Shown here piece by piece: positions 3,892 to 64,000 of a stretch of DNA of 64,000 nucleotides (its first letter is position 1; every line of letters begins with the position of its first letter). The stretch lies in contig CAKPPI010000001.1 of assembly GCA_934177545.1 (NCBI GenBank), positions 4,255 to 68,254 on the forward strand, in the 5' to 3' direction. This stretch comes from an uncultured Bacilli bacterium. GTDB taxonomy: Bacteria; Bacillota_I; Bacilli_A; RF39; UBA660. The position numbers and the translations under genes are program-made. The notes beneath the pieces were generated by a model. The model was not told the DNA's origin. It did not search any database and worked only from the letters and a program-made list of their open reading frames with translations.

Positions 3892-5046
3892 ATGGAAAAT
3901 ATATTTGAAATAAATGATACTAATATGATAGCAATGAAACTACTTCATTATTTTATAACTGAAAGAAATTATACTCCCATAATTCTAAATGGAGTAGAAG
4001 ATGAAATTTGGTTAGAAAACTTAGATGAAGACTGTGAAATAGTAAGAATCGTTTTGCATCATATTCATAATGATGAACAATATAAATTTGATGTTTTTAA
4101 GACTAATCGAATTGTGAAAAAGATAAAAGCGAAAACATTTTCTTTTAAGTTAAATACACTAAGTATCTTTCTAAATCTAGGAAGTAGTGTTGATCTTAGT
4201 AAAGAATTACCAAAGAATGGAGTAGCTACTTGTGTAACTGATGAAAAAGATGTTAAAAAAGATAAGTTGTTACTAGCGACTTATCCTGACATATATAAAA
4301 ATATTTCTAGAAATAAAGAAAAAGGAGCAGATTTGTTTATTAAGATAACAGATGAGATTAATGAACATAATCATAGAGATCAAAAGCAGATGGATAAAGT
4401 ATTTAGACCGAAGAAACCGATTATCACTTATCTTTTAGTTCTTATAAATGTACTATTATTTGTAGTGCCTGCTCTACTTGGACAGACAGATAATATCTTT
4501 AGAGAACTAGCTGTCTTTGGACCATATATTAGACAAGGTGAATATTATAGATTAATAACAGGTACCTTTATTCATGCTAATATTGCTCACTTAATATTTA
4601 ATATGTATGCTTTGTGGATAATTGGTATTCAACTTGAGAGTTTTCTTGGTAAATGGAAATACTTACTCATCTATTTATTTAGTGGTTTAACAGCTTCCTT
4701 GATGTCCATAACTTTCCATAATACAACCGTAAGTGTGGGAGCCAGTGGAGCCATCTTTGGTTTACTTGGAGCTATGTTATACTTTGGCTATCACTACCGA
4801 GTTTACTTAGGAACTGTTATTAAAAGTCAGATAGTACCATTGATAGTTTTAAACTTAGGTTTAGGATTTTTAGTACCAGGAATTGATAATGCTGCTCATA
4901 TTGGCGGATTAATCGGGGGAGTATTAATGATGATGGCAACAGGAGTTGACTATAAAAGTGCTACTTTTGAAAAGGTAAATGGAGTAATAGTTTCTATTCT
5001 TTATTTAGCATTCTTAATTTATATGGGAATATTCTATATTCATTAG
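3892..5046 (+). CDS. rhomboid family intramembrane serine protease with an N-terminal cytoplasmic extension
   Basis: The C-terminal half has six transmembrane segments with the GASGAIFGLLGA motif (catalytic Ser) and the HIGGLIGG motif (catalytic His). Confidence 0.8.
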   Translation: MENIFEINDTNMIAMKLLHYFITERNYTPIILNGVEDEIWLENLDEDCEIVRIVLHHIHNDEQYKFDVFKTNRIVKKIKAKTFSFKLNTLSIFLNLGSSVDLSKELPKNGVATCVTDEKDVKKDKLLLATYPDIYKNISRNKEKGADLFIKITDEINEHNHRDQKQMDKVFRPKKPIITYLLVLINVLLFVVPALLGQTDNIFRELAVFGPYIRQGEYYRLITGTFIHANIAHLIFNMYALWIIGIQLESFLGKWKYLLIYLFSGLTASLMSITFHNTTVSVGASGAIFGLLGAMLYFGYHYRVYLGTVIKSQIVPLIVLNLGLGFLVPGIDNAAHIGGLIGGVLMMMATGVDYKSATFEKVNGVIVSILYLAFLIYMGIFYIH

Positions 5047-7803: not shown

Positions 7804-9633
7804 TTGAGCAGTATGTACTTTACAATTAGTGGCTTATTTTGTATAGTGCTATTAATGATACTATTCTTTTCTAAAAGTAGAATAGATAGTAAAGAAACTA
7901 AACTATATGGTTTTATGCTACTTAGTAGTTTCTTTGATGTAATTTTAGTATTAGCAGAGCTTACAATAACTTATTATTTCCTAGATGATGTTAATATGTA
8001 TTTAGTAAAAGGATTAAATAAAATAGACTTTATTCATTATATAATGTGGCCGACATTACTTAGTCTATATACAATTTATGTTACCTATCTAGATGAAGAA
8101 AAATATAATAAAGCGAAAAAGATATTCTTAACTATAGATATAATTGCTATTCTTATCGAGTTTATGTTACCAATTAATATAATATCTAATAAAGAAGCAA
8201 TGGGAGTTACAGGTATTGGACCAACCTTTGTTTTTCTAATATCTTCTTTCTATGTAATAGTAAATATAATTATTTTAATAAAGAATTATAAGAAAATTAA
8301 GAATAAAAAAAATCTTCCATTTCTTTTCTTTCTTATCTTTATAATAATAGCTATGCTACTTAGAGTTTATAATCCAACATTAATAGTAATACCAGCTATA
8401 ATTGTTTATATTAATATGATAATGTATTTTACAATTGAAAACCCTGATGTTAAACTGATAGAAGAGATTAATATAGCTAAAGAGTCAGCTATTAAAGCTA
8501 GTAATGCTAAGACTGAATTCTTATCAAATATGTCTCATGAGATAAGAACACCACTTAATGCGATAGTTGGGTTTTCAGAAGCTTTACAAAGTGATGAGAG
8601 AATACCAGTAGAGACTAAGGAAGATATTAAGAATATAGTAATGGCTAGTGATAGTTTATTAGAAATAGTAAATGGTATATTAGATATTTCTAAGATAGAA
8701 GCTGATAAATTAGAAATTATTAATACAACTTATTCACCTAGAAAAATATTTGATGAATTAGTAGTATTAACTAGAGGAAGACTTGGATTTGAGAAACAAA
8801 TAGAATTTAGAACAAGTTTTAGTAGTGATATACCAACTACTTTGTATGGAGATTATGCAAGAGTAAAACAAATAGTTTTAAACTTATTAACTAATGCTGT
8901 TAAGTATACTAATGAAGGATATATTAGTTTTACGGTAGAATGTGTTAATATAAATAAAGATTTATGTAGATTAATTATTTCTGTTGAAGATAGTGGTATA
9001 GGAATTAAAAAAGATAAAATAGATAAATTATTTACTAAATTTGAACGCCTTGATGAAGAGAAAAATATTACTATTGAAGGTACTGGTCTTGGACTTGCTA
9101 TTACTAAAAAACTAGTTGAATTAATGCATGGGAAGATGGTAGTTCAAAGTATCTATGGTAAAGGAAGTAAGTTTACTGTATCACTTGATCAAAAGATAGT
9201 TGCTACTAAAGAAAAAGAAGAAATTAAAGAAAAAACAGTAGTAAAAGGTAACTATAAAGGAAAAAGAGTTTTAGTAGTAGACGATAATAAACTTAATCTA
9301 AAAGTAGCAGAAAGACTATTAAGAGAGTATAATTTATTTGTAGATGAAGTAGCAAGTGGATTTGATGCTATAGATAGAATTAATATGGGAGTACCTTATA
9401 ATCTAATCCTAATGGATGATATGATGCCTAAGATGAGTGGGTGTGAAACTTTAAAAGAATTAAAGAAGAATAAAGACTTTCATACTAAGATAGTGGCACT
9501 AACTGCTAATGCTATTTCTGGAATGAGAGAAAAATACTTAAGTGTTGGTTTTGATGATTATTTAGCTAAACCAATAAAAAAAGAAGAGTTAGAAGTTATT
9601 TTAGATAAATATTTAAAGGAGGATAAGAAATGA
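7804..9633 (+). CDS. hybrid sensor histidine kinase: multi-TM sensor, HisKA, HATPase_c and a C-terminal receiver domain
   Basis: An N-terminal membrane region of about 6 TM segments. H-box SHEIRTPLNAIVGF, G-box GTGLGLAI, and a receiver with VLVVDD...MDDMMPKMSG. TTG start at 7804, with an alternative ATG at 7813. Confidence 0.85.
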   Translation: MSSMYFTISGLFCIVLLMILFFSKSRIDSKETKLYGFMLLSSFFDVILVLAELTITYYFLDDVNMYLVKGLNKIDFIHYIMWPTLLSLYTIYVTYLDEEKYNKAKKIFLTIDIIAILIEFMLPINIISNKEAMGVTGIGPTFVFLISSFYVIVNIIILIKNYKKIKNKKNLPFLFFLIFIIIAMLLRVYNPTLIVIPAIIVYINMIMYFTIENPDVKLIEEINIAKESAIKASNAKTEFLSNMSHEIRTPLNAIVGFSEALQSDERIPVETKEDIKNIVMASDSLLEIVNGILDISKIEADKLEIINTTYSPRKIFDELVVLTRGRLGFEKQIEFRTSFSSDIPTTLYGDYARVKQIVLNLLTNAVKYTNEGYISFTVECVNINKDLCRLIISVEDSGIGIKKDKIDKLFTKFERLDEEKNITIEGTGLGLAITKKLVELMHGKMVVQSIYGKGSKFTVSLDQKIVATKEKEEIKEKTVVKGNYKGKRVLVVDDNKLNLKVAERLLREYNLFVDEVASGFDAIDRINMGVPYNLILMDDMMPKMSGCETLKELKKNKDFHTKIVALTANAISGMREKYLSVGFDDYLAKPIKKEELEVILDKYLKEDKK

Positions 9634-16164: not shown

Positions 16165-16960
16165 AATTAAAGATAAGGAAGAGGTGATTAACTGTGTATA
16201 TGTCAATCAATATGTCAAGTTTACAACTAGTTAACATGGGGGGGGGCAATTTAGACAGTAATAATACTCTTTTTTATCATGCATTAATAACAGGATAGGA
16301 TTGGCCTTATCTTGTTTTTTAGTGTAAATAAAATAGAAGGAGTGAAAGAAAAAATGAACAACAAAAAGCAATTAATTGTATCAATTGGACTAACCTTAGT
16401 ATTAGTTCTAATGATAGTAGGAATCAGTTATGCAGCTTTTAAGTTTGTAGGACTAGGTCAGAGGGAAAATACTATAACAACAGGAGCTATAACGATGGAG
16501 TATACTGAAAGTACTAATACTATCAGTATGACAGGAGCCTTACCAACAACTGATACAACAGGAAAGGTAAGATTAACTAAAGGAGAATACTTTGATTTTA
16601 CTATTAAAAGTAGTATTCAAGGAAATGCTAATATTAACTGGGAAATAGCAGCAGAAGATATAACACCATCATCAGCTAAAAAGATGGCTGGTAAAAATAT
16701 AAAACTTTATTTAACAAAATTAGATAGTACTGGAGCAGAAACACAGGTAATGGCACCAAAAGTATATAATGTTAGTACGTCAGCAAATACAAAGACAGGA
16801 AGACCATCAGGAGTAATGAGTCTAGCAACAGGAACAATGAGTACAAGTGAGACAACAAACTATCGTCTTAGAATGTATGTAGATGAAGACTATAATCCCC
16901 AAGGAGATGGAGGAGGTTTATCATTTAGTGTTAAGATAAATGCTTATGGAAAAGTAAAAG
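16165..16960 (+). repeat. copy 1 of a ~0.8 kb duplicated segment (promoter region plus 5' CDS) shared with 60271..61060
   Basis: Near-identical sequence from aattaaagataaggaagaggtgatta through the first ~200 codons. It carries a G9 homopolymer at 16238-16246. Confidence 0.85.
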
Positions 16961-18099
16961 AAGCCCCAACAGGTAGTAAGATAAAAGCTTATATGACACA
17001 AGCTGATTATGATAATGATAACTATCCAGAAACAGACTTTCATACTGATGCTTATAGGTCAAAAATAACTAGTATTATCACAAAAAAAGATAATATAGTA
17101 CCAGCAACAGCAGTTGAAAGTTGGGATATCTCAGAAGCAGGTGATGGTTCAGTAATGGCTTATGTAGAGAAAACTGATGAGGTATTGAAACCAGAACCAG
17201 CTAATGCAGAGATATATTCTAATAAAGGAGAAACAAAAGACATGTTAGAAACAATATACGCTACACCTCTTGAGGGAACCAATACTAATTATGCTTATAA
17301 GTTAACAATAGGTGGAAAGGGTGGAATTATTGCAAATGAAAATATGGTAGGTTATTTTTATAAGTTTAAAAGAGTAACATCAATAGATTTGTCATCCTTA
17401 GATACATCGGAAGTAACAAATATGGTTGGAATGTTTAGACACTGTATCAGTTTAACAAGTTTAGATGTAAGTAAGTTTGATACATCGCAAGTAACAGATA
17501 TGAGTAATATGTTTATTGGTTGTGAAAGTTTAACAAATCTAGATGTAAGTAGTTTTGCTACATTAGAAGTAACAGATATGAGTAATATGTTTTATGAGTG
17601 TAGCAGTTTAACAAGTTTAGATTTAAGAAACTTTGATACCTCAAAAGTGACAAATATGAGTTATATGTTTGATTACTGTATCAGTTTAACAAGTTTAGAT
17701 GTAAGTAAGTTTGATACATCTAACGTAACAGATATGAGTTGGATGTTTCGTAATTGTAGCAGTTTAACAAGTTTAGATTTAAGAAACTTTGATACCTCAA
17801 AAGTGACAAATATGAGTGAGATGTTTGGTTATTGTGAAAGTTTAACAAATCTAGATGTAAGTAGTTTTGTTACATTAGAAGTAACAGATATGAGAGGTAT
17901 GTTTAATAATTGTTGCAGTTTAACAAGTTTAGATTTAAGAAGCCTTGATACATCACAAGTAACAGATATGAGTGGTATGTTTGATATATGTAGTAACTTA
18001 ACCCAAATAACTGTTTCTAATAAATGGGTAGTAGGATCAAGTACCTTAACTGATAGAATGTTTTTTAACTGTGGAACTGATCATGTAACTACTATCTAG
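16354..18099 (+). CDS. secreted or surface protein with a conserved N-terminal domain and C-terminal DUF285-type leucine-rich repeats (Mycoplasma/BspA-like)
   Basis: Signal-anchor MNNKKQLIVSIGLTLVLVLMIVGISYAAF. Eight tandem 26-aa repeats fitting C-SLTSLD-S-FDTS-VT-MS-MF. The real start is ATG at 16354; the track ORF starts further upstream. Confidence 0.75.
   Translation: MNNKKQLIVSIGLTLVLVLMIVGISYAAFKFVGLGQRENTITTGAITMEYTESTNTISMTGALPTTDTTGKVRLTKGEYFDFTIKSSIQGNANINWEIAAEDITPSSAKKMAGKNIKLYLTKLDSTGAETQVMAPKVYNVSTSANTKTGRPSGVMSLATGTMSTSETTNYRLRMYVDEDYNPQGDGGGLSFSVKINAYGKVKEAPTGSKIKAYMTQADYDNDNYPETDFHTDAYRSKITSIITKKDNIVPATAVESWDISEAGDGSVMAYVEKTDEVLKPEPANAEIYSNKGETKDMLETIYATPLEGTNTNYAYKLTIGGKGGIIANENMVGYFYKFKRVTSIDLSSLDTSEVTNMVGMFRHCISLTSLDVSKFDTSQVTDMSNMFIGCESLTNLDVSSFATLEVTDMSNMFYECSSLTSLDLRNFDTSKVTNMSYMFDYCISLTSLDVSKFDTSNVTDMSWMFRNCSSLTSLDLRNFDTSKVTNMSEMFGYCESLTNLDVSSFVTLEVTDMRGMFNNCCSLTSLDLRSLDTSQVTDMSGMFDICSNLTQITVSNKWVVGSSTLTDRMFFNCGTDHVTTI
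17380..18010 (+). repeat. tandem array of about eight 78-bp (26-codon) DUF285-type repeats
   Basis: Long exact DNA matches between units, for example agtttaacaagtttagatttaagaaactttgatacctcaaaagtgacaaatatgagt appears twice. Confidence 0.8.
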
Positions 18100-30426: not shown

Positions 30427-30503
30427 GTCTCAGTAGCTCAGCTGGATAGAGCATCGCCCTTCTAAGGCGAGTGTCATGGGTTCGAATCCCCTCTGGGACA
30501 CCA
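30427..30503 (+). tRNA. tRNA-Arg (anticodon TCT) with an encoded CCA end
   Basis: Cloverleaf with acceptor stem gtctcag/ctgggac, D-arm tagctcagctggatagagc, anticodon loop CTTCTAA, T-arm gggttcgaatccc. A terminator hairpin follows at 30516-30543. Confidence 0.9.
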
Positions 30504-36391: not shown

Positions 36392-36403
36392 GAAGTGTTA
36401 AAT

Positions 36404-38149
36404 ATGAAAACAATAGAAAATAATAGTTTAAGATTAACTGATAAAGATAAAGAAGTAACTCTATATGGTTGGGTACAAAAGAAACGTGACTTAGGAGGAG
36501 TATGCTTTATTGATCTTCGTGATAGAAGTGGTATAGTTCAATTAGTAGCTCGTGAAGGAGATACTTATACTCTTGCTAGTAATCTAAAGAATGAATCTGT
36601 CTTAAAAGTAGAAGGTATTGTTAAAGAAAGAGAATCTAAAAACAAAAATATAGCTACTGGAGATGTTGAAGTTGAATTAACTAATATTGAACTACTAAAT
36701 TCTTCAAGAGATTTACCTTTTGAAATAGCAAATGATACCACTGCCTTAGAAGATACTAGACTAAAGTATCGTTATCTTGATCTTAGAAGAAGTAACTTAA
36801 AAGACAATTTAATAACTCGTCATAAGATTACGCTTGCTATTAGAAACTTCTTAGATAGTAAAGGCTTTATTGAAGTAGAAACTCCAGTACTTTGTAAATC
36901 AACTCCAGAAGGAGCAAGAGACTATTTAGTACCTAGTAGAGTAAATAAAGGAAAGTTTTATGCTCTTCCTCAATCACCTCAATTATTTAAACAATTATTA
37001 ATGGTAGGTGGTATGGAAAAATACTTTCAAATAGCAAAGTGTTTTCGTGATGAAGACTTAAGAAGTGATAGACAACCAGAGTTTACGCAAGTCGATATGG
37101 AAATGAGTTTCGTTAATGAAGAAGATGTAATGAGTATGACTGAAAAGTTAATTGCTCATGTCTTTAAAGAAATTAAAGGAATAGAAATTGAATTACCACT
37201 TAAGAGAATGGAATATGATGATGCTATGAAGTATTATGGCTCTGATAAACCAGACTTAAGATTTGATATGAAAATAACTGATGTTAAAGATATATTTAAA
37301 GATAGTGAATTTAAAGTATTTTCAAATGCACTTGATGAGAAAAGTACTATCGCTTGTATAAAAGTAGATGATAATGCAACGTATTTTTCTAGAAAGAAAA
37401 CTGATGAGTTAACTGAATTTGTAAAAATTTATAAAGCAAAAGGTCTTCCATTTGTAAAATATGAAAATAAAGAGTTTACTGGTGGTATTAGTAAATTCTT
37501 AAGTGATAAAGAAAAAGAAGAGTTAGTTAAAAAACTAGAACTTAAAGATAATGATATCTTATTCTTTGGAGCTGATAACAAAATGATAGTTTATCAGACA
37601 TTAGGTGCTTTAAGATGTAAATTAGCTCGTGACTTAGACCTTATCAAAAAAGGTGATTACAAATTATTATGGGTTACTAAATTTCCATCATTTGAGTGGA
37701 GTGAAGAAGAAAATAGATTTGTTGCTTGTCATCATCCATTTACAGCACCACTTGACAGTGATGTAGATAAACTTTTAACTGATAAAGCACATTGCTACTC
37801 TAAAGCTTATGATATTGTTATTAATGGCTATGAAGCGGGTGGTGGATCTATTCGTATCCATAATGAAGAAGTTCAAGAGAAAATGTTTGAAGCTTTAGAA
37901 TTAACTAAAGAAGATATTGATGAGAAGTTTGGTTTCTTTGTTGAAGCTTTGAAATATGGAACACCACCTCATGGTGGACTTGCTATTGGACTAGATCGTC
38001 TTACTATGTTATTAACTGAAACTGATAACATTCGTGATGTAATAGCTTTTCCGAAGACTGCTAGTGCTAGTTGTTTGATGAGTGAAGCTCCTAATAAGGT
38101 TGCTAAAAAACAACTTGAAGATTTAGGTGTAAAATTAGAAAAAGAATAA
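36404..38149 (+). CDS. aspS: aspartyl-tRNA synthetase (bacterial type with GAD insertion), copy 1
   Basis: An OB-fold N-terminus, [20 protein letters not shown] and GGGSIRIH motifs. 582 aa from ATG 36404. Confidence 0.9.
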
Positions 38150-41639: not shown

Positions 41640-42461
41640 TTATCCTAATTTAATAATACTAACCCTTGCTCCTGTATTACTATCAAGTGTTAAGGTAAGT
41701 CCTGTTGCTGAATTAGCTACAAAATCTATAACATCTCCTGTAGCTAGAGTAGTAATGATACTTCCTGTGAATAATTTATTTTCATTAGCAGGAGCATTTA
41801 AAGTAATAGAGCTGCTATCAATTTCTGTATTATTTTTTCTAACAAATACGGTTATATCTGCTTGTTGGGAACTAGAAGCATCTAATAAATAGTAGATTTG
41901 GTAAGTACCAGCATCTCCTACAGTAATAGCATTAGAAGTAGTATAAGTAGTATTTAAACTAGGACCATTTGTTTGTAAAGGAATTTGTCCATCTTGATTA
42001 GGAGTAAGCGTTACTGTTTCAGCACCTTCTGTGTATCTTTCACCGTATGCTGCTATTCCTCCAGTAGGTCCAGTAGGTCCAGTGGGTCCTGTAGGTCCAG
42101 TAGGACCAGTTGCTCCAGTTAAACCAATAGGACCAATATTACCCTGAGGTCCAGTTGGCCCTGTTGGCCCAGTAGGACCCGTAGCACCTGTAGCACCAGT
42201 TAAACCAATAGGACCAATATTACCTTGAGGCCCAGTAGGTCCAGTGGGTCCTATACTTCCTCTTGGAATAGAAAAGTCTAAGATGACATTCTCATTAGTT
42301 CCACTATTAGTAACCGAAGCATTACTACCAGCATCAGTTGTAGTAGTAGTTCCTACCGTAATAGTAGCAGCACCAGCGGGTCCAGTAGGTCCAGTGGGTC
42401 CTTGTACATAACAAAACTTACATCTTGTTTTTTCTTTATTTTCATTACAGTTATCAAACAT
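41640..42461 (-). CDS. collagen-like triple-helix repeat protein with a C-terminal globular (BclA/C1q-like) domain
   Basis: More than 40 G-X-Y triplets ([22 protein letters not shown]...). It contains an ~81-bp internal direct repeat. Local GC is elevated. Confidence 0.8.
42058..42255 (-). repeat. GXY collagen triplet repeat tract containing an ~81-bp direct duplication
   Basis: The unit ccagttaaaccaataggaccaatattacc(c/t)tgagg occurs twice about 81 bp apart. Confidence 0.7.
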
Positions 42462-46115: not shown

Positions 46116-46339
46116 TGTTAATTATTATAGCATGGATGTTAATAAACTAAAGTTAAAACTTAATAATTCGTAAATTATGATTTTTTAACTTTGACGTATT
46201 TATGACTTTCTATATTAACATTTATAATAGTTAAAGAATTTAAGTATAAGACAAAGTATGATAGAGATTTTAAAGCAAGCGTGAATATAATGCTTGAAGG
46301 TTTAAAAATATATATACAGAACTTAATTTAAAATAAAAT

Positions 46340-56996: not shown

Positions 56997-58423
56997 TGTA
57001 TGATGTAGTTATTGGACTTGAAGTACACTGTGAATTAGATACGTTATCTAAAAACTTTTCAAGTAGTGAAAATAGTTATACTAAGATTCCTAATATTCAC
57101 GTTTCACCAGTTGATTTAGGACTACCGGGAATATTACCTGTTGTAAATGAAAAAGCTTGTTATAATGCTTTAAGAACAGCGATGGCTCTTCACTGTGAAA
57201 ATCCTGATGAGATAATGTTTGATCGCAAGAACTATTTTTATCCCGACCTTCCTAAAGGCTACCAAATAACTCAAGTTACTAAACCAATGGGAAGAAACGG
57301 TTACTTAGATATATTAGTAGATGGTTCTATCAAAAGAGTATTAATTCATCAGTTACATCTAGAAGAAGATACAGCTAGTCTAGAGCATGATAAGAACTAT
57401 TCCCTAATAGATTATAACCGTAGTGGTATACCACTAATGGAAATAGTAACAGAACCATGTCTTACCAGTGCTCTTGAAGCAGTAACTTTTCTAGAAGACT
57501 TAAGAGATGTCTTCTTATATCTAGGAGTTAGTGAAGCAAAGACTGATAAAGGTCAGATGAGATGTGATGTTAATATCTCTTTAAAAGAAAAAGGTAGTGA
57601 TAAGCTTGGTACTAAAGTCGAGATGAAAAACATTAACTCATTCACAAGTGTCAAAGAAGCGATAGAATATGAAATAAAAAGACAAAGTGAAGCCTTGGCT
57701 AATGGCGAGAAGATAATTCAAGAGACAAGACGAATTGATGAGACGGGAAAAACTCACTCTATGCGTGAAAAAGTAGATGCCATTGATTATAAATACTTTG
57801 TCGATGCTAACTTACCACCAGTTAAAATAACGGATGCTAAGAAAGAAGAACTAAGAAGTTCTATTCCTAAATTAAAACTAGATAGAATTTTAACTTATCA
57901 AAAAGAACTAGGACTAGATTATTATGATGCTTCTATTATTGCTAAAGAAAGAGACCTAGCAGACTACTTTGAAGAGACTGTAAAAGATGTAAGCTTAGCT
58001 GTTAACTTTATAACAACTAGTATCTTATCAACTTTAAATAAACTAGAAATTACTATTGAAGAGTTAGTAGTAACTCCTTCAATGCTAAGTAGTTTAATAA
58101 ACTTAGTAAGTAGTGATAAGTTATCACTTGATCATGCTAAGAAAATACTTTATAAAGCAATAGAATTAAAAACTGATCCTATTAAATTAATAGAGAAAGA
58201 AAATTTGTCACAAATAAACGATAAAGATGAATTAATTAAATACATAAAAATAGAGTTTGATAAATATCCTAATCAAGTAGAACAATATATAAAAGAAGAT
58301 AATTTATCAGTTATTAATTTCTTTATGGGAAAAGTTATGTCATCTACTAAAAGACAAGCTAATCCTAATATGACAAGAGAATTAATCAAAGAAGAACTAG
58401 AAAGGATGAAGAAGAATGATTAA
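56996..58423 (+). CDS. gatB: amidotransferase subunit B
   Basis: MYDVVIGLEVHCEL N-terminus and a GatB/YqeY C-terminal domain. Confidence 0.9.
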   Translation: MYDVVIGLEVHCELDTLSKNFSSSENSYTKIPNIHVSPVDLGLPGILPVVNEKACYNALRTAMALHCENPDEIMFDRKNYFYPDLPKGYQITQVTKPMGRNGYLDILVDGSIKRVLIHQLHLEEDTASLEHDKNYSLIDYNRSGIPLMEIVTEPCLTSALEAVTFLEDLRDVFLYLGVSEAKTDKGQMRCDVNISLKEKGSDKLGTKVEMKNINSFTSVKEAIEYEIKRQSEALANGEKIIQETRRIDETGKTHSMREKVDAIDYKYFVDANLPPVKITDAKKEELRSSIPKLKLDRILTYQKELGLDYYDASIIAKERDLADYFEETVKDVSLAVNFITTSILSTLNKLEITIEELVVTPSMLSSLINLVSSDKLSLDHAKKILYKAIELKTDPIKLIEKENLSQINDKDELIKYIKIEFDKYPNQVEQYIKEDNLSVINFFMGKVMSSTKRQANPNMTRELIKEELERMKKND

Positions 58424-60161
58424 AAATATATATCGTGACTGCTATGCTGGTAGTCTTAGAGAAAAAGATATTGATAAAGAAGTAAAAGTAGCTGGTTTCA
58501 TTGAAAATATAAGAGACCATGGTGGAGTAATCTTTGTTGATTTAAGAGATTACTATGGAACACTACAATTAGTTAGTAATGATGATAAGATGTTTGATGA
58601 TTTAACAAGAGAGTCATCTGTTACAGTAACAGGAAAGATTCGTAAAAGAGATAGTGATGACTATAATGATCGAATTGAAACTGGTACTATTGAATTATTA
58701 GTTAGTTCTATAAAGGTACTTGGTAAGAGTAAGAATGTTTTACCATTTGAAGTTATGACTAGTAAAGATGTATCAGAAGATGTAAGACTAAAGTATCGTT
58801 ATCTAGATTTAAGAAATCCTAAAGTTAAACAATCTATTCTATTTAGAAATAAAGTTATTCACTTTTTAAGAAACTTAATGGAAAGTGAAGACTTTGTTGA
58901 ACTACAAACTCCAATCTTAACTTCATCATCTCCTGAAGGAGCAAGAGACTTTCTAGTACCTAGTAGAAAATATAAAGGAAAGTTTTATGCCCTACCACAA
59001 GCTCCTCAACAATTTAAACAACTACTAATGTGTGCTGGTTTTGATAAATACTATCAAATAGCACCATGCTTTAGAGATGAAGATGCAAGAAGTGACCGTG
59101 TTTATGGTGAATTCTATCAATTAGACTTTGAAATGGCTTTTTCAACTGAAGAAGATGTCCTAAGAATGGGTGAGAAAGTATTTTATGAAACATTTAGGGA
59201 GTTTGCTAAAGATAAAGATATATCAGAACCACCATTTATTAGATTAACTTATAAAGAAGCGATGGAAAAGTATGGTTCTGATAAACCAGATTTAAGAAAT
59301 CCTTTAGTTATAATTGATTTAACAGAAGAGTTTGAAGAGACAGAATTTCGTCCTTTTAGAGGTGTACCAGTTAAAGGAATAAAAGTAGAAAACTTAGCTA
59401 GTAAGAGTAATTCTTGGTTTAATGAGGTAGTTGATTATGCCAAAAGTATTGGTATGCCAGGAATTGGTTATTTAAAAGTAAATGAAGATTTATCATTTGC
59501 TGGTCCTATTGATAAGTTTTTAACTGAAGATGAACGTGAAGCTTTAATAGATAAAGCTGATCTTAAGAAAGATGATGTCTTATTCTTTATAGCAGATCGT
59601 AAAAAATCGCTAGAACTAGCTGGTTCTATTAGAATGGAGTTAGGTAGAAAACTTGATTTAATGGATCCTAATAAATATGTCTTTGCTATCATTCATGACT
59701 TTCCAATGTTTGAGTGGGATGAAGAAAATGAATGCTATACTTTCATGCATAATCCATTTAGTATGCCAAAAGATGGAATGAAAGGGCTTGATCAAAAAGT
59801 AGAAGACATTCTAGCTTATCAATTTGACTTTGTTTGTAATGGTGTAGAATTATCTAGTGGAGCAGTTAGAAACCATGACTTAGAAATCATGAAGAAAGTC
59901 TTTGCAATAGCAGGTTATGAGGAAGAAGAAATCGAAAAGAGATTTAAAGCTTTATATGAAGCTTTCCAATATGGAGCACCACCTCATGCTGGTATGGCCC
60001 CTGGACTTGATCGTATTCTAATGATGCTTCTAGATGAAGACTCTATTAGAGAAACAATCGCATTCCCAATGAGTGCTTCAGGAAGTGATATCTTAATGAA
60101 TGCTCCAAGTACTGTTACAGAACAACAATTAAGAGAAGTACATATCAAAGTAAGAGATTAG
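58416..60161 (+). CDS. aspS: aspartyl-tRNA synthetase, copy 2 (likely the non-discriminating AspRS, given operon context)
   Basis: Full-length bacterial-type AspRS with FRDEDARSDR and a GAD domain. It overlaps the gatB stop. Confidence 0.85.
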   Translation: MIKNIYRDCYAGSLREKDIDKEVKVAGFIENIRDHGGVIFVDLRDYYGTLQLVSNDDKMFDDLTRESSVTVTGKIRKRDSDDYNDRIETGTIELLVSSIKVLGKSKNVLPFEVMTSKDVSEDVRLKYRYLDLRNPKVKQSILFRNKVIHFLRNLMESEDFVELQTPILTSSSPEGARDFLVPSRKYKGKFYALPQAPQQFKQLLMCAGFDKYYQIAPCFRDEDARSDRVYGEFYQLDFEMAFSTEEDVLRMGEKVFYETFREFAKDKDISEPPFIRLTYKEAMEKYGSDKPDLRNPLVIIDLTEEFEETEFRPFRGVPVKGIKVENLASKSNSWFNEVVDYAKSIGMPGIGYLKVNEDLSFAGPIDKFLTEDEREALIDKADLKKDDVLFFIADRKKSLELAGSIRMELGRKLDLMDPNKYVFAIIHDFPMFEWDEENECYTFMHNPFSMPKDGMKGLDQKVEDILAYQFDFVCNGVELSSGAVRNHDLEIMKKVFAIAGYEEEEIEKRFKALYEAFQYGAPPHAGMAPGLDRILMMLLDEDSIRETIAFPMSASGSDILMNAPSTVTEQQLREVHIKVRD

Positions 60162-60192
60162 CTATAGAACACTCTATAGTTTTTCTTTTTAT
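60162..60192 (+). terminator. rho-independent terminator after aspS2
   Basis: ctatag-aacact-ctatag followed by tttttcttttt. Confidence 0.5.
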
Positions 60193-60270
60193 AGTTTGAC
60201 ATATTAACTGTATAAAATTAGTTTAAAACTAAAAATTAATTGAAAATCACCCCCTCTTTGTGTTAGAATC

Positions 60271-61060
60271 TAATTAAAGATAAGGAAGAGGTGATTACTA
60301 TGTATTTGTCAACCATAATGTCAAGTTTACAATTAGTTAACATGGGGGGGGCAATTTATATAGATTAATCACTTCTTTTTATCATGCATTAATAACGGGA
60401 TAGGACTAGTCTTATCTTGTTTTTTAGTGTAAATAAAATAGAAGGAGTGAATAAGAAAAATGAACAACAAGAAACAACTACTATTATCAATCGGACTTGT
60501 TTTAATACTAGTTCTAATGATAGTAGGAATCAGTTATGCAGCTTTTAAGTTTACTGGAACAGGTCAAAAAGCCAATACTATAACAACAGGTGCAATTACT
60601 ATGAAGTATACAGAGTCAACTAATACAATAAGTATGAATAATGCTCTACCAACAACTGATGCTACTGGGAAAGTAAGATTAACAGCTGGAGAATACTTTG
60701 ATTTTACTTTATCAGGTACAATTAAAGGATCAGAAAACATCAACTGGGAGATAGCAGCAGAAGATGTAACAACAGCATCTAGAAAGATAGATGGTAAATA
60801 TATAAAACTATATTTAACAAGTCTAGATGACACTGGTAATGAGAAAGAGGTAATGGTACCTAAAGTATATAAAACTGAATCAACAGAAAATACATATACT
60901 GGACGTCCTGCTAATATGATGAGTCTAGCTAAAGGAACAACATCTACAAGCTTCTCTACAAAATACCGTCTTAGAATGTATGTAGATGAAAGTTATAACC
61001 CGCAGGGAGATGGAGGAAACTTAGCATTTAGTATAAAGATAAATGCTTATGGTAAAACAG
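60271..61060 (+). repeat. copy 2 of the ~0.8 kb duplicated promoter/5'-CDS segment (G8 tract at 60344-60351)
   Basis: Near-identical to 16165..16960. The homopolymer length differs by one G. Confidence 0.85.
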
Positions 61061-62373
61061 GTGAAATGATGCTTTCTACAGTAGCAGAAGCACTACAAAG
61101 CAATGGACTAGGAGCAAATGGAGTATTTGATACAAGTGACCCAGAGCAGACATTTGTTACTGGAACAGGTCCTGATAACTATATTTGGTATAGTGGAAAA
61201 CTATGGAGAGCAGTATCAATAGATTCAACTGATAACTCTGTAAAATTAGTAACACAGTGGAATATATCAGCCTTACCATATAATGAAGAAAATAATTCTG
61301 AATTTAAAGGAAGCTATATGGAGCAGTGGTTGAATGATACTTCAGTAGATGGTTTCTTAGGAAACCTAAGAGAACCAGATAAATTTATTAAAACAGATAG
61401 TGTTTGGAATGCTACTATGACTAAGGAAACTACAAAGCCAGAGAAGACTACCATGGTAACAGATACTGTAGGTTTACTAAATTTTTATGAGTATACAATG
61501 AGTTACAAAAATGCTAAAGCTGAAACTGGCTATTTAAATAATGGTTTAGAGTGGTGGACGTTGACACCTTATAGTACGTCGAACGTCCGTTACGTCGAGG
61601 GCCGCGGTTACAGCAGCAGCTATAGTCCGGCGCATTCGGATGGCTCTCGCCCATCTATAAATCTAAAATCTGCTGTAAAAATTATAGACGGTGATGGAAC
61701 CAGTAATAATCCGTACAGGCTTCAAGGCGATAATGATAATCCAACAGGAGCATTGTTATCAACAAGATATAGTGGTGAATATATAAGTTTTGGAACCGGC
61801 GAAAATGATCTGTATCGAATAGTAAGCCATGAAAATGGAACTGGTACTAAAATAACAAGTGCTATACCTATAAAATATAGTGGTAGTTATAAAGAGCTTG
61901 CTTTTGGAAGTAATACAACATTTTCTAAAGATAATACAATAGGAACGTTCTTAAATAGTGATTATTTGACAAATGGTACCTATCTAACTAGTGACCAAGT
62001 AAGTATGATAGAAGATAATACAACATGGTATTTGGGAACTGTAGGATATGCTAGTTATAAATTAGCAAAATATCAAGATGCAACAGGTAGCAATCTAACA
62101 ACATCAACTACTACTGCTCAAATAGGACTACTAAGAGTAGGTGAATTAATGGCAGGACAATTTGACAAATATAATAATAATGTTAGTTATTGGACATTAA
62201 CACCTTATAGTACCTCGTACATCCGTGGCGTCAGCTACACCGGTGTCAACGGCGGCTTTCATCCGGCGAATTCGTACGGCTCTCGCCCATCTATGAATCT
62301 AAAATCTAATGTGATAATAACTGGTGGAAAAGGTACGGCTCGGGAACCATTCACTATAAAGTTAGGTAGCTAA
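60460..62373 (+). CDS. secreted or surface protein paralog with a distinct C-terminal region that carries two GC-rich motif repeats
   Basis: The N-terminal ~200 aa are near-identical to the 16354 protein. The C-terminus contains the motifs WWTLTPYSTSNVRYVEGRGYSSSYSPAHSDGSRPSINLKS and YWTLTPYSTSYIRGVSYTGVNGGFHPANSYGSRPSMNLKS. Confidence 0.75.
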   Translation: MNNKKQLLLSIGLVLILVLMIVGISYAAFKFTGTGQKANTITTGAITMKYTESTNTISMNNALPTTDATGKVRLTAGEYFDFTLSGTIKGSENINWEIAAEDVTTASRKIDGKYIKLYLTSLDDTGNEKEVMVPKVYKTESTENTYTGRPANMMSLAKGTTSTSFSTKYRLRMYVDESYNPQGDGGNLAFSIKINAYGKTGEMMLSTVAEALQSNGLGANGVFDTSDPEQTFVTGTGPDNYIWYSGKLWRAVSIDSTDNSVKLVTQWNISALPYNEENNSEFKGSYMEQWLNDTSVDGFLGNLREPDKFIKTDSVWNATMTKETTKPEKTTMVTDTVGLLNFYEYTMSYKNAKAETGYLNNGLEWWTLTPYSTSNVRYVEGRGYSSSYSPAHSDGSRPSINLKSAVKIIDGDGTSNNPYRLQGDNDNPTGALLSTRYSGEYISFGTGENDLYRIVSHENGTGTKITSAIPIKYSGSYKELAFGSNTTFSKDNTIGTFLNSDYLTNGTYLTSDQVSMIEDNTTWYLGTVGYASYKLAKYQDATGSNLTTSTTTAQIGLLRVGELMAGQFDKYNNNVSYWTLTPYSTSYIRGVSYTGVNGGFHPANSYGSRPSMNLKSNVIITGGKGTAREPFTIKLGS

Positions 62374-62474
62374 ATAATTGATAGAGAAAAGCTTAAAAAA
62401 TTATAGCTTTTTTCTTTTGTGCTTTAAAGTTGTGTGGTATACTTATCTTATGATAGGAGGATAGGAAAAAGACA

Positions 62475-64000
62475 ATGAATATTAGAAAAATTAGTACTAA
62501 GAATTTAGTACGAATACTAGTAGTTTTAATTATTTTAATAGGTGGAATCTTTGCTAAGAAAACATTAACATCTTATGCTTTATTAGAAAGTAGTGAAGCA
62601 CCTAGTAAATTAGTTACTAGTACAGGTAATGTTATGTCTGATAGAGTAAGTCTTTTTGATGACTTAGATGGGGATGAAATTATTTCATTAGTACCTTTCT
62701 ATGGAATGGATGATAATGGTAATAAATATACTGTATATTGTCTTGAGAAAAGTAAAGACTTTGCTCCAAATCAGACAGTAACTAAAGTTAATACACCACT
62801 TGATGATGGATATACCTATATAATAAAAAATGGTTATCCTAATAAAAGCTTAACAGAAAATAATAAAAATGATAATTATTTAACGCAAATAGCAGTATGG
62901 CTCTATCAAGATAGATCAGCAGGTGTAAGTGATACTACTAATGGAGTGCTTACTGCTAATCAAAAAAGTTCAATTAAGAAAAGTAGTTATTATACTGTAA
63001 TTAATAATTTAGTAACAGGAGCGATGAATGCTAAAAACACTACTAATATTACTAATCCGACCTTTAGTGTAAGTAGTGGAACATTATCTACTGATAGTGA
63101 TAATACTTATCTAATCAGTAATGTCATGAGAATAACTTCTAATACTGATGAGTTTATTAACTATAAAGTAGTCGCTTCTAGTAGTGATATTTTAGCAAGT
63201 GATATAGAAATACTTGATGAAAATAATAATGTAATAACTACTAATAGTGCTATAGCTAAAGATAAAGGCTTTAAAATTAGAGTACCTTTAGCAAAGATAA
63301 AGAAAGCATCTAGTATAAATATTGATATTATCAATAACTATAAAGATTATAAGACCTATGGTTATGAACCACCAGAGGGTATGAAAGATACTATGCAAAA
63401 GTCATTTGTATCCTTGCTAGCTGCTAATGTAACATCTAAACAAATATCTACTAGTCTTAATATGCCAGTAGGAAGTATTACTATTAATAAAATAGATAGT
63501 ACTAATAATAACTTAGCTGGAGCTAATTTTACTATTAAGAGATTAGCAACTAATGAAATAGTAGATAGTTTTACTACAACAACTACAGCACATGTAACAT
63601 CTAACTTGTTACCAGGTAATTATGAAATTACCGAAACAGCTGCTCCTAGTGGTTATTATATAACAGATAAGACAACTAATATAACAATAACAAGTAATGC
63701 CTTAAATAAAACTAAAACAATAACTAATAGCCAAGCAGAAGTATCAATTAGAAAGATAGATAGTGTTAGTAAACAAGTAGTAAGTGGGGCAGTTTTGAAA
63801 ATAGTAAATAGTGCTAATCAAACAGTAAAAACTATTACTACTACAAATGACTATACTAAAATAACTGGTCTTTCACTTGGAACTTATAAAGTAGTAGAAG
63901 TAACTGCTCCTGATGGTTATACCGTAAATACTACGGCTAAAGAATTTACTTTAAGTAGTACTAATCCAAAGGTAACTCTAGATTATGCTGATCAACAAAA
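62475..64000 (+). CDS. thioester-domain (TED) adhesin with CnaB/SpaA-type isopeptide domains; the 3' end lies outside the window
   Basis: Signal or TM segment at the N-terminus. Cys in YCLEKSKDF plus TQIAVWLY (the TQxxxW thioester motif). Repeated prealbumin-like domains (ITINKIDSTNNNLAGANFTI...LLPGNYEITETAAPSGY). No stop before position 64000. Confidence 0.65.
   Translation, partial: MNIRKISTKNLVRILVVLIILIGGIFAKKTLTSYALLESSEAPSKLVTSTGNVMSDRVSLFDDLDGDEIISLVPFYGMDDNGNKYTVYCLEKSKDFAPNQTVTKVNTPLDDGYTYIIKNGYPNKSLTENNKNDNYLTQIAVWLYQDRSAGVSDTTNGVLTANQKSSIKKSSYYTVINNLVTGAMNAKNTTNITNPTFSVSSGTLSTDSDNTYLISNVMRITSNTDEFINYKVVASSSDILASDIEILDENNNVITTNSAIAKDKGFKIRVPLAKIKKASSINIDIINNYKDYKTYGYEPPEGMKDTMQKSFVSLLAANVTSKQISTSLNMPVGSITINKIDSTNNNLAGANFTIKRLATNEIVDSFTTTTTAHVTSNLLPGNYEITETAAPSGYYITDKTTNITITSNALNKTKTITNSQAEVSIRKIDSVSKQVVSGAVLKIVNSANQTVKTITTTNDYTKITGLSLGTYKVVEVTAPDGYTVNTTAKEFTLSSTNPKVTLDYADQQ

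Follow-up and report, generated by a model that had tools for sequence, protein, structure and literature searches.

Two GC-rich patches in a surface-protein gene of an uncultured gut Bacilli bacterium are probable variable repeats of a diversity-generating retroelement

The DUF6273 domain is known from gut phages as a C-type-lectin-like target of diversity-generating retroelements (DGRs), with the variable repeat (VR) at its C-terminus (PMC10743442, PMC11792537, 10.1101/2024.10.15.618418). In DGRs the adenines of the template stand at first and second codon positions according to the logic of the AAC codon, tandem AAC codons are an established feature, and remote targets are established for DGRs outside phages (PMC5758913). 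Here we describe a stretch of 64,000 nt from an uncultured Bacilli bacterium of the GTDB lineage RF39; UBA660 (assembly GCA_934177545.1, contig CAKPPI010000001.1, forward-strand positions 4,255 to 68,254), referred to below as the window. Two short GC-rich patches inside one of its surface-protein genes are, with high confidence from sequence comparison, variable repeats of a DGR.

The two patches, given as about 60% GC in the initial annotation, are real: positions 61570-61655 reach 59.3% GC and positions 62212-62292 reach 60.5%, against 28.7% in the window on average and 33.2% in the rest of the gene. Both lie at z of about 5.6, and the maximum among all other stretches of equal length in the 64 kb is 54.7%. 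Their use of otherwise rare codons, also claimed at that stage, holds as well, as TCG, CCG, GCG, CGT, CGC and GGC make up 19 of the 50 patch codons and 7 of the 588 codons in the rest of the gene, and occur at 11.3 per 1000 in the 40 other genes of the window. The patches form a direct repeat of 128 nt, 77% identical and 636 nt apart, each encoding one copy of the motif (W/Y)-W-T-L-T-P-Y-S-T-S-x-(V/I)-R-x-V...G-S-R-P-S-(I/M)-N-L-K-S. The initial annotation had recognized this motif once per patch with its first two residues in reverse order, and had correctly seen a likeness to the WWxRSP...GVRPA motif, which belongs to the Pfam family DUF6273 matched by the protein. The four palindromic sites that it named exist (CCGCGG at 61602, ACCGGT at 62239, GAATTC at 62268 and CGTACG at 62273). 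Their supposed clustering is at chance level, since six-base palindromes show no excess over shuffled versions of the patches (P = 0.43 and 0.12), and in relatives these sites fall mostly on hypervariable columns and are not conserved; a role for restriction-site palindromes was therefore abandoned. Other GC-rich stretches of the window have separate sources: those at 42007-42410 belong to a collagen-like open reading frame (ORF) on the minus strand (41640-42461) composed of 9-nt GXY-type repeats (GGTCCAGTA and similar), and the remaining spot at 30427-30503 (55%) is a tRNA-Arg(TCT) gene.

Each patch coincides with one variable repeat at the C-terminal end of one DUF6273 domain. A nucleotide profile of 73 columns, from TCG to CGCC, was made from 21 unique repeat copies of the window, Clostridium sp. 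CAG:451 (L011) and gut-metagenome contigs (L017-L028). Every one of the 24 hypervariable columns is at a first or second codon position, and A is the most frequent base in 15. Adenine is entirely missing from the 40 conserved columns, which consist of C (18), G (12) and T (10); P for this is about 1.5e-9 given 39.8% A in the gene otherwise. By comparison, A is present in 14 of the 43 conserved columns immediately outside the variable zone. VR1 and VR2 of the window differ at 23 of 78 positions, 20 of which are first or second codon positions. At the protein level, 121 homologs of 80-93% identity show an entropy of about 3 bits at residues 375-394 and 587-606, with 10-16 residue types each, against a gene-wide median of 0.07 bits. 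The residue types seen there, namely Y, N, S, G, D, T, H, R, C, F, I and V, are those that NNC and NNT codons specify. Conserved columns free of adenine, together with variable columns limited to codon positions 1 and 2, are the signature of adenine-specific mutagenesis by a DGR. Both repeats of the window also share one third-position signature, GGT NNC NNC; elsewhere, both repeats of a gene match the third-position signature of the adjacent template where that template is known.

Such variation might instead reflect diversifying selection at the protein level on a binding loop rich in Tyr, Ser, Gly and Asn, combined with local codon bias and needing no dedicated mutator. The residue repertoire is indeed like that of binding loops, and the repeats are stable within lineages. 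However, selection on amino acids would not fix synonymous third positions at C or T, would not bar adenine from conserved codons in a gene of 40% A, and offers no account of the contrast between 21% and 0.1% divergence found in two strains with identical reverse transcriptase (RT), described below. We consider this explanation hardly credible.

The repeats end in a conserved boundary. Homology between template and repeat stops exactly after the GC-rich GGCTCTCGCC, from which the repeats read on into CATCTATRAATCTAAAATCT and the templates into ATTTCCTCTTAA. The 20-nt flank on the repeat side is kept in nearly all copies, including third codon positions and synonymous sites. This boundary appears to match the arrangement of the initiation of mutagenic homing (IMH) and IMH* sites of known DGRs, and is called IMH-like here.

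In relatives, a third and adenine-rich copy of the repeat starts about 100 nt past the stop codon of a paralogous target gene, 256 nt downstream of the start of VR2 (L028 and L011), and has A at 23 of the 24 hypervariable columns in L028 and at 20 of 24 in L011. This template was found by rescanning the fetched loci on the conserved columns. Scans that included bases past GGCTCTCGCC returned only variable-type copies or chance matches in high-GC genomes; they missed the template because it diverges exactly there. An ungapped scan also missed the template of L037, which has a 6-nt deletion. Templates were found in L028, L029, L030, L032, L033, L035 and L053.

The cassette of L028 is arranged in the order target, template of 78 nt, spacer of about 200 nt with a hairpin and T-run at its end, ORF of 111 amino acids (aa), Avd-like protein of 114 aa, and RT. 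The 111-aa ORF has no family match. The 114-aa protein aligns over its full length with bAvd (E = 0.0024, 18.8 bits, cut-off 40) and with DivGenRetAVD (E = 0.0052, 17.1 bits, cut-off 80). The RT, 316 aa long in L028 and 311-316 aa in the relatives, matches RVT_1 (2e-18) and possesses the DGR-type IGNYTSQ motif and YMDD. The relatives' RT is 30-35% identical to the RTs of phage DGRs, including nd12, FP_Brigit and ANMV-1, and Bordetella phage records are among the 102 records matching it. In the spacer RNA, a conserved 9-bp stem follows straight after the template; five of its pairs show compensatory changes in the divergent L053, which lend the stem weak support, with about two independent lineages compared. 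The cassette is chromosomal and is encountered with genes for SpaA pilin, sortase and LtaS, followed by one or two DUF6273 targets, the template, the 111-aa ORF, the Avd-like protein and RT, while a pseudouridine synthase gene and, further on, that of PolC are found 3' of the RT. The same architecture recurs at a different site in a lineage with a 74%-identical RT, where template and repeats have co-evolved and encode GVRPS.

Differences between template and repeat are concentrated on adenines. All 21 mismatches in L028 fall on template adenines. When unique template/repeat pairs from six loci were pooled, with the decayed template of L011 included, changes were counted at 112 of 247 template adenines and at 30 of 533 bases of other kinds (Fisher p = 2e-38); those at adenines were A to G in 56 cases, A to T in 48 and A to C in 8. 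Strains L029 and L030 have identical RT proteins, and their repeats differ at 33 of 156 positions (21%), against 4 differences outside the repeats in about 3.2 kb from position 7813 onward (0.1%; p = 2e-23); everything else in the compared region is 1.7% diverged. The template of L030 (9027) has CAG in place of the CCG of the other templates, and the same CAG is found in its VR1 (8133). This repeat contrast and the transferred CAG indicate that retrohoming was recent in those strains.

Other relatives show decay of the cassette. In L037-L044 the RT is cut to 287 aa, the 6-nt deletion removes two codons of the template, the T-run before the 111-aa ORF is shortened, and only 86 aa of this ORF remain; none of the three variable repeats differs between at least five samples from different cohorts, Hadza samples included. 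All that is left in Clostridium sp. CAG:451 is a mutated template with a portion of the spacer. With cassettes intact in some related strains, decaying in others and absent from others still, these strains represent a natural series for the orphaning of DGR targets.

The initial annotation had attributed the patches to recent gene conversion or horizontal insertion of just the motif-encoding units, or to constraint at the nucleic-acid level. In its general form, in which GC-rich DNA came from a donor of higher GC content or from a paralog by horizontal insertion or ordinary gene conversion without any RT, this idea gains from the sharp compositional boundaries and from the nature of the gene family, which is multi-copy and recombining, has mosaic N-terminal parts, and is represented here by a gene that is itself a 2.2-kb insertion. 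It is nevertheless very improbable. No donor was found. Apart from matches by chance in genomes of high GC, the pattern scans match only this gene family, and no phage match was obtained for the target. Neither the adenine-free conserved columns, nor the limit to codon positions 1 and 2, nor an adenine-rich template copy beside an RT is explained by it, and the template of the relatives is a resident sequence, adenine-rich and of 50% GC. A recent event in this strain is contradicted by the relatives, which have the same GC-rich scaffold codons, and by the comparison with L024, from which the patches have diverged no more than the rest of the gene. AT-rich codons for the same residues in relatives, which the initial annotation would have taken as a sign of a local event or of a chimera, were not found; the relatives are GC-rich there. 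A sequencing or assembly chimera, for which nothing speaks beyond the odd composition, can be dismissed, since the identical sequence is present in two independent assemblies (L001 and L002). Homologous patches are carried, moreover, by dozens of contigs from different cohorts, in answer to the question whether other genomes have them. What endures from the initial annotation is that the foreign composition is confined to the motif-encoding units and that templated replacement or a constraint at the nucleic-acid level is involved. DGR mutagenic retrohoming, a one-way replacement of motif units mediated by cDNA, fits the former, and entails for the latter a rule at the nucleotide level, namely no adenine in the codons of residues that need to stay fixed.

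The DGR mechanism is established for DGRs generally and is extended here to the window gene. An adenine-rich template repeat would be transcribed and then reverse-transcribed by a dedicated RT, which would misincorporate bases opposite template adenines, and the resulting cDNA would replace the variable repeat up to the GC-rich boundary at its 3' end. Three causes together raise the GC content of the patches. Fixed residues are written in adenine-free codons (TCG, CGT, GTC, GGC/GGT, CCG, GCG, TCT and CGC), variable codons that are AAC or AAT in the template become NNC or NNT in the repeat, and mutated adenines often turn into G, as in half of the changes. The GC content is 73-75% in conserved columns, 46% in hypervariable columns, 50% in the template and 33% in the rest of the gene; adenine-free codons ending in G or C, together with A to G changes, account for the order of repeat (62%), template (50%) and gene (33%). 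The location of the repeats at the ends of two tandem DUF6273 domains implies two diversified binding sites per protein.

Several observations weigh against this interpretation or against its application to the window copy. Avoidance of adenine leaves unexplained the preference of the fixed codons for a final G or C over T; our guess is that stability of the pairing between cDNA and target, or of the template RNA, in an AT-rich genome is behind it. DNA folds detected no significant hairpin in the 80 nt after each boundary (z = -1.36 and +0.81 versus shuffles); a hairpin or cruciform downstream of the variable repeat is not universal among DGRs. Both Avd matches of the 114-aa protein are under the curated cut-offs. 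The C-type lectin fold is putative here, as the AlphaFold models are unusable, with a predicted local distance difference test score of 38.8 for the full length and 35.9 for domain 2, and a PDB profile search of the target gave no sequence match; the assignment of this fold rests on published models of other DUF6273 proteins (PMC10743442). Scans and tblastn found no template, RT, Avd or 111-aa ORF in the 64-kb window or in the 10 kb after the gene (L001). None of the fetched loci contains a cognate template of the GGT NNC NNC type, and the window repeats show 8-10 non-adenine mismatches to the sampled templates. Compared with L024, a 96.4% identical relative that served as control for the background rate, the repeats are 3.8% diverged and the rest 3.6% (p = 0.83). 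The repeats are almost identical in the seven members of the protein's own 90% cluster, and the exact protein is found on three contigs, with no sign of current activity on the window copy.

The absence of the GGT NNC NNC signature from every sampled template means that the cognate template of the window repeats is unsampled. RT lineages P0148 and P0143 were considered as its source and rejected, as L053 has the same architecture with a different template, and no cassette was found at the nusA locus in 22 kb around P0014. Divergence of the repeats at the background rate from L024, together with the frozen cluster, indicates that the window copy was not recently rewritten, and the gene is a remote and probably quiescent target. 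We infer that the cassette either lies elsewhere and seldom acts on this copy, or has been lost.

The latter case would make the patches fossil or orphan repeats, written once by a DGR whose cassette has since been lost or inactivated in the window lineage, so that they now evolve ordinarily. This explanation concerns only whether the gene is still being diversified, and not the origin of the patches, and its chances seem to us evenly balanced. It agrees with the background-level divergence from L024, with the near-identity of the repeats across the seven-member cluster and on the three contigs, with the cassette decay in L037-L044 and CAG:451, with the lack of a cassette within 74 kb, and with phages reported in a preprint to keep both targets without a DGR (10.1101/2024.10.15.618418). 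On the other hand, both repeats retain an intact IMH-like 3' boundary, the sequence analysed covers only part of the genome, and non-phage DGRs are known to have targets over 100 kb away from the RT (PMC5758913). In addition, the substitutions that separate the protein from close relatives, N375R, V596D and F600Y, are few and all at hypervariable positions.

The 637-aa protein of the window gene consists of a hydrophobic signal/anchor segment at the N-terminus, an N-terminal domain common to the paralog at 16312-18099, and two tandem DUF6273 domains. Its match to Pfam DUF6273 (PF19789) has E = 1.3e-9 and 38.6 bits over two stretches, above the gathering cut-off of 23.5 bits; the best stretch spans profile positions 21-172 of 172 and terminates at VR1, while the second is reported by Pfam without coordinates, so that the limits of domain 2 were taken from the repeat register. 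More than 120 clusters of homologs of the target protein are found at 80-93% identity, and a tblastn search of the target against phage records gave no match. Coordinates are collected in the table.

Table. Positions of the proposed DGR target gene and associated features in the 64,000-nt window
Feature	Position	Strand	Basis or remark
Putative DGR target gene	60460..62373	+	ORF; 637-aa protein
DUF6273 domain 1, residues 271-404	61270..61671	+	Best Pfam stretch
DUF6273 domain 2, approximately residues 483-616	61906..62307	+	Inferred from the 636-nt repeat register
Proposed variable repeat 1 (VR1), 78 nt, 62.8% GC	61574..61651	+	In register with template repeats of relatives; hypervariable residues 375-394
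Proposed variable repeat 2 (VR2), 78 nt, 61.5% GC	62210..62287	+	Hypervariable residues 587-606
IMH-like 3' boundary of VR1	61642..61671	+	GC-rich GGCTCTCGCC then CATCTATAAATCTAAAATCT
IMH-like 3' boundary of VR2	62278..62307	+	GGCTCTCGCC then CATCTATGAATCTAAAATCT
Strain-variable insertion of about 2.2 kb, whole target gene and upstream region	60190..62394	.	Comparison with L052
Promoter-like site TTAACA-18 nt-TAGATT, G8 tract at 60344-60351 in spacer	60337..60366	+	Consensus scan only

The 2.2-kb insertion is located between the aspS terminator and an adhesin gene with a thioester domain (TED). In L052, GatC is identical and the flanks are 92-94% identical, yet window position 60189 is joined straight to 62395, and in L048-L051 unrelated genes follow aspS. 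Other loci of the family are found near nusA (L011, L045 and L046) and near murB and glycosyltransferase genes (L047). The paralog at 16312-18099 shares with the target its upstream region and first 200 or so residues at 74-89% nucleotide identity (window 16191-18099), and its C-terminus is made of PARCEL/DUF285 leucine-rich repeats, with 78-nt tandem units at 17320-18080. The family thus looks modular in its sequences, with a common N-terminal part and exchangeable binding modules.

A poly-G tract is found about 110 nt upstream of the target gene (G8) within a conserved TTAACATG(n) motif, and the same motif upstream of the paralog holds G9 (16238-16246). Upstream of family genes in other loci and strains TTAACATG(n) contains G8, G9 or G11, and at one and the same locus its length varies from G8 in L029 to G9 in L030 and L031; the tracts lie at about 19515 in L029, 19447 in L030, 5884 in L046 and 5886 in L047. 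In a genome of 29% GC, this poly-G looks like a candidate phase-variable promoter tract for the surface-protein family.

On the 3' side of the target (window 62475-64000 and L001 12016-20106) are encoded a 1170-aa adhesin with TED and SpaA repeats, a 217-aa ORF, a 376-aa fusion of an N-terminal extension to a SipW-like signal peptidase, a protein with DUF5305 and an ORF of 502 aa. Apart from the adhesin gene, these genes, four in all, are absent from L052 and form a second strain-variable block. Two paralogous genes of class-IIb aminoacyl-tRNA synthetases are present at window 36395-38149 (584 aa) and 58416-60161 (581 aa), the latter just upstream of the target and beside gatCAB; they are 73-80% identical over stretches. 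A 57-nt element occurs with 96% identity in unrelated contexts at window 46172-46228, L011 4887-4943 and L025 244-300, and may be a small dispersed repeat.

A striking compositional anomaly is thus explained by a known mechanism. Where a genome is AT-rich, a sharp pair of GC islands that combine adenine-free codons for fixed residues with NNC codons for variable ones can diagnose the variable repeats of a DGR without the RT or the template being part of the available sequence, a case that annotation tools starting from the RT would miss. The range of DUF6273-type DGR targets, known from gut phages, is extended in this way to surface proteins of a cellular organism, a human-gut bacterium, with two diversified sites in each protein and copies spread over several loci. 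We further propose, tentatively and as the less likely outcome, a two-layer system of surface variation in a small low-GC gut bacterium, in which the window gene would be a live remote target and not a fossil. Surface proteins encoded as a family at several loci, each having two lectin-like sites that diversify independently, would be rewritten in trans by a single chromosomal DGR of unusual layout; variable promoter poly-G tracts would switch family genes on and off, and modules of about 2.2 kb would carry the target genes from one locus to another.

Comparison with known systems shows similarities to each of three groups. The DUF6273 targets of gut-phage DGRs include the tentaclins, the Mtd-like targets of nd4 and nd12, and those of Faecalibacterium prophages Lelie, CP11, Roos and Pioen and of Toutatisvirus. 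The window gene shares with them the Pfam domain and the variable repeat at its C-terminus; among these phages one DGR serves two DUF6273 targets, one of them 17 kb off, and some genomes hold targets without a DGR (PMC10743442, PMC11792537, 10.1101/2024.10.15.618418). Phage nd12 has an RT about 35% identical to that of the relatives. Unlike those of gut phages, the loci described here are cellular and chromosomal, beside aspS, nusA, murB or polC, and the window protein has a signal/anchor segment, two tandem DUF6273 domains with a repeat in each, and no BLAST-level similarity to any phage record.

With the DGR of Bordetella phage BPP-1 (mtd, avd, template, brt), the relatives' cassette shares adenine-specific transfer from template to repeat with AAC-type codons mutated at positions 1 and 2, a GC-rich boundary that ends the homology, an Avd-like protein and an RT with the [I/L]GxxxSQ motif, and a structured spacer RNA after the template. 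The order is target, template, 111-aa ORF, avd and RT in the relatives but target, avd, template and RT in BPP-1. In contrast to BPP-1, the template is only 78 nt long, the repeats lack a detectable hairpin on their 3' side, each gene has two repeats, and the window copy is remote.

The DGR of Treponema denticola (TvpA) and other non-phage DGRs of 'lineage 4' are likewise cellular and act on several surface-protein genes, with some targets located more than 100 kb from the RT (PMC5758913). Their targets contain C-type lectin domains of the FGE-sulfatase type, whereas those described here contain DUF6273, and the tie of the window target to a resident cassette is, by comparison, only putative. 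Against this background, the features that appear particular to the present system are its cellular context, two repeats per protein, copies at several loci and the orphan position of the window copy, together with the order target, template, 111-aa ORF, avd and RT and the short template of 78 nt.

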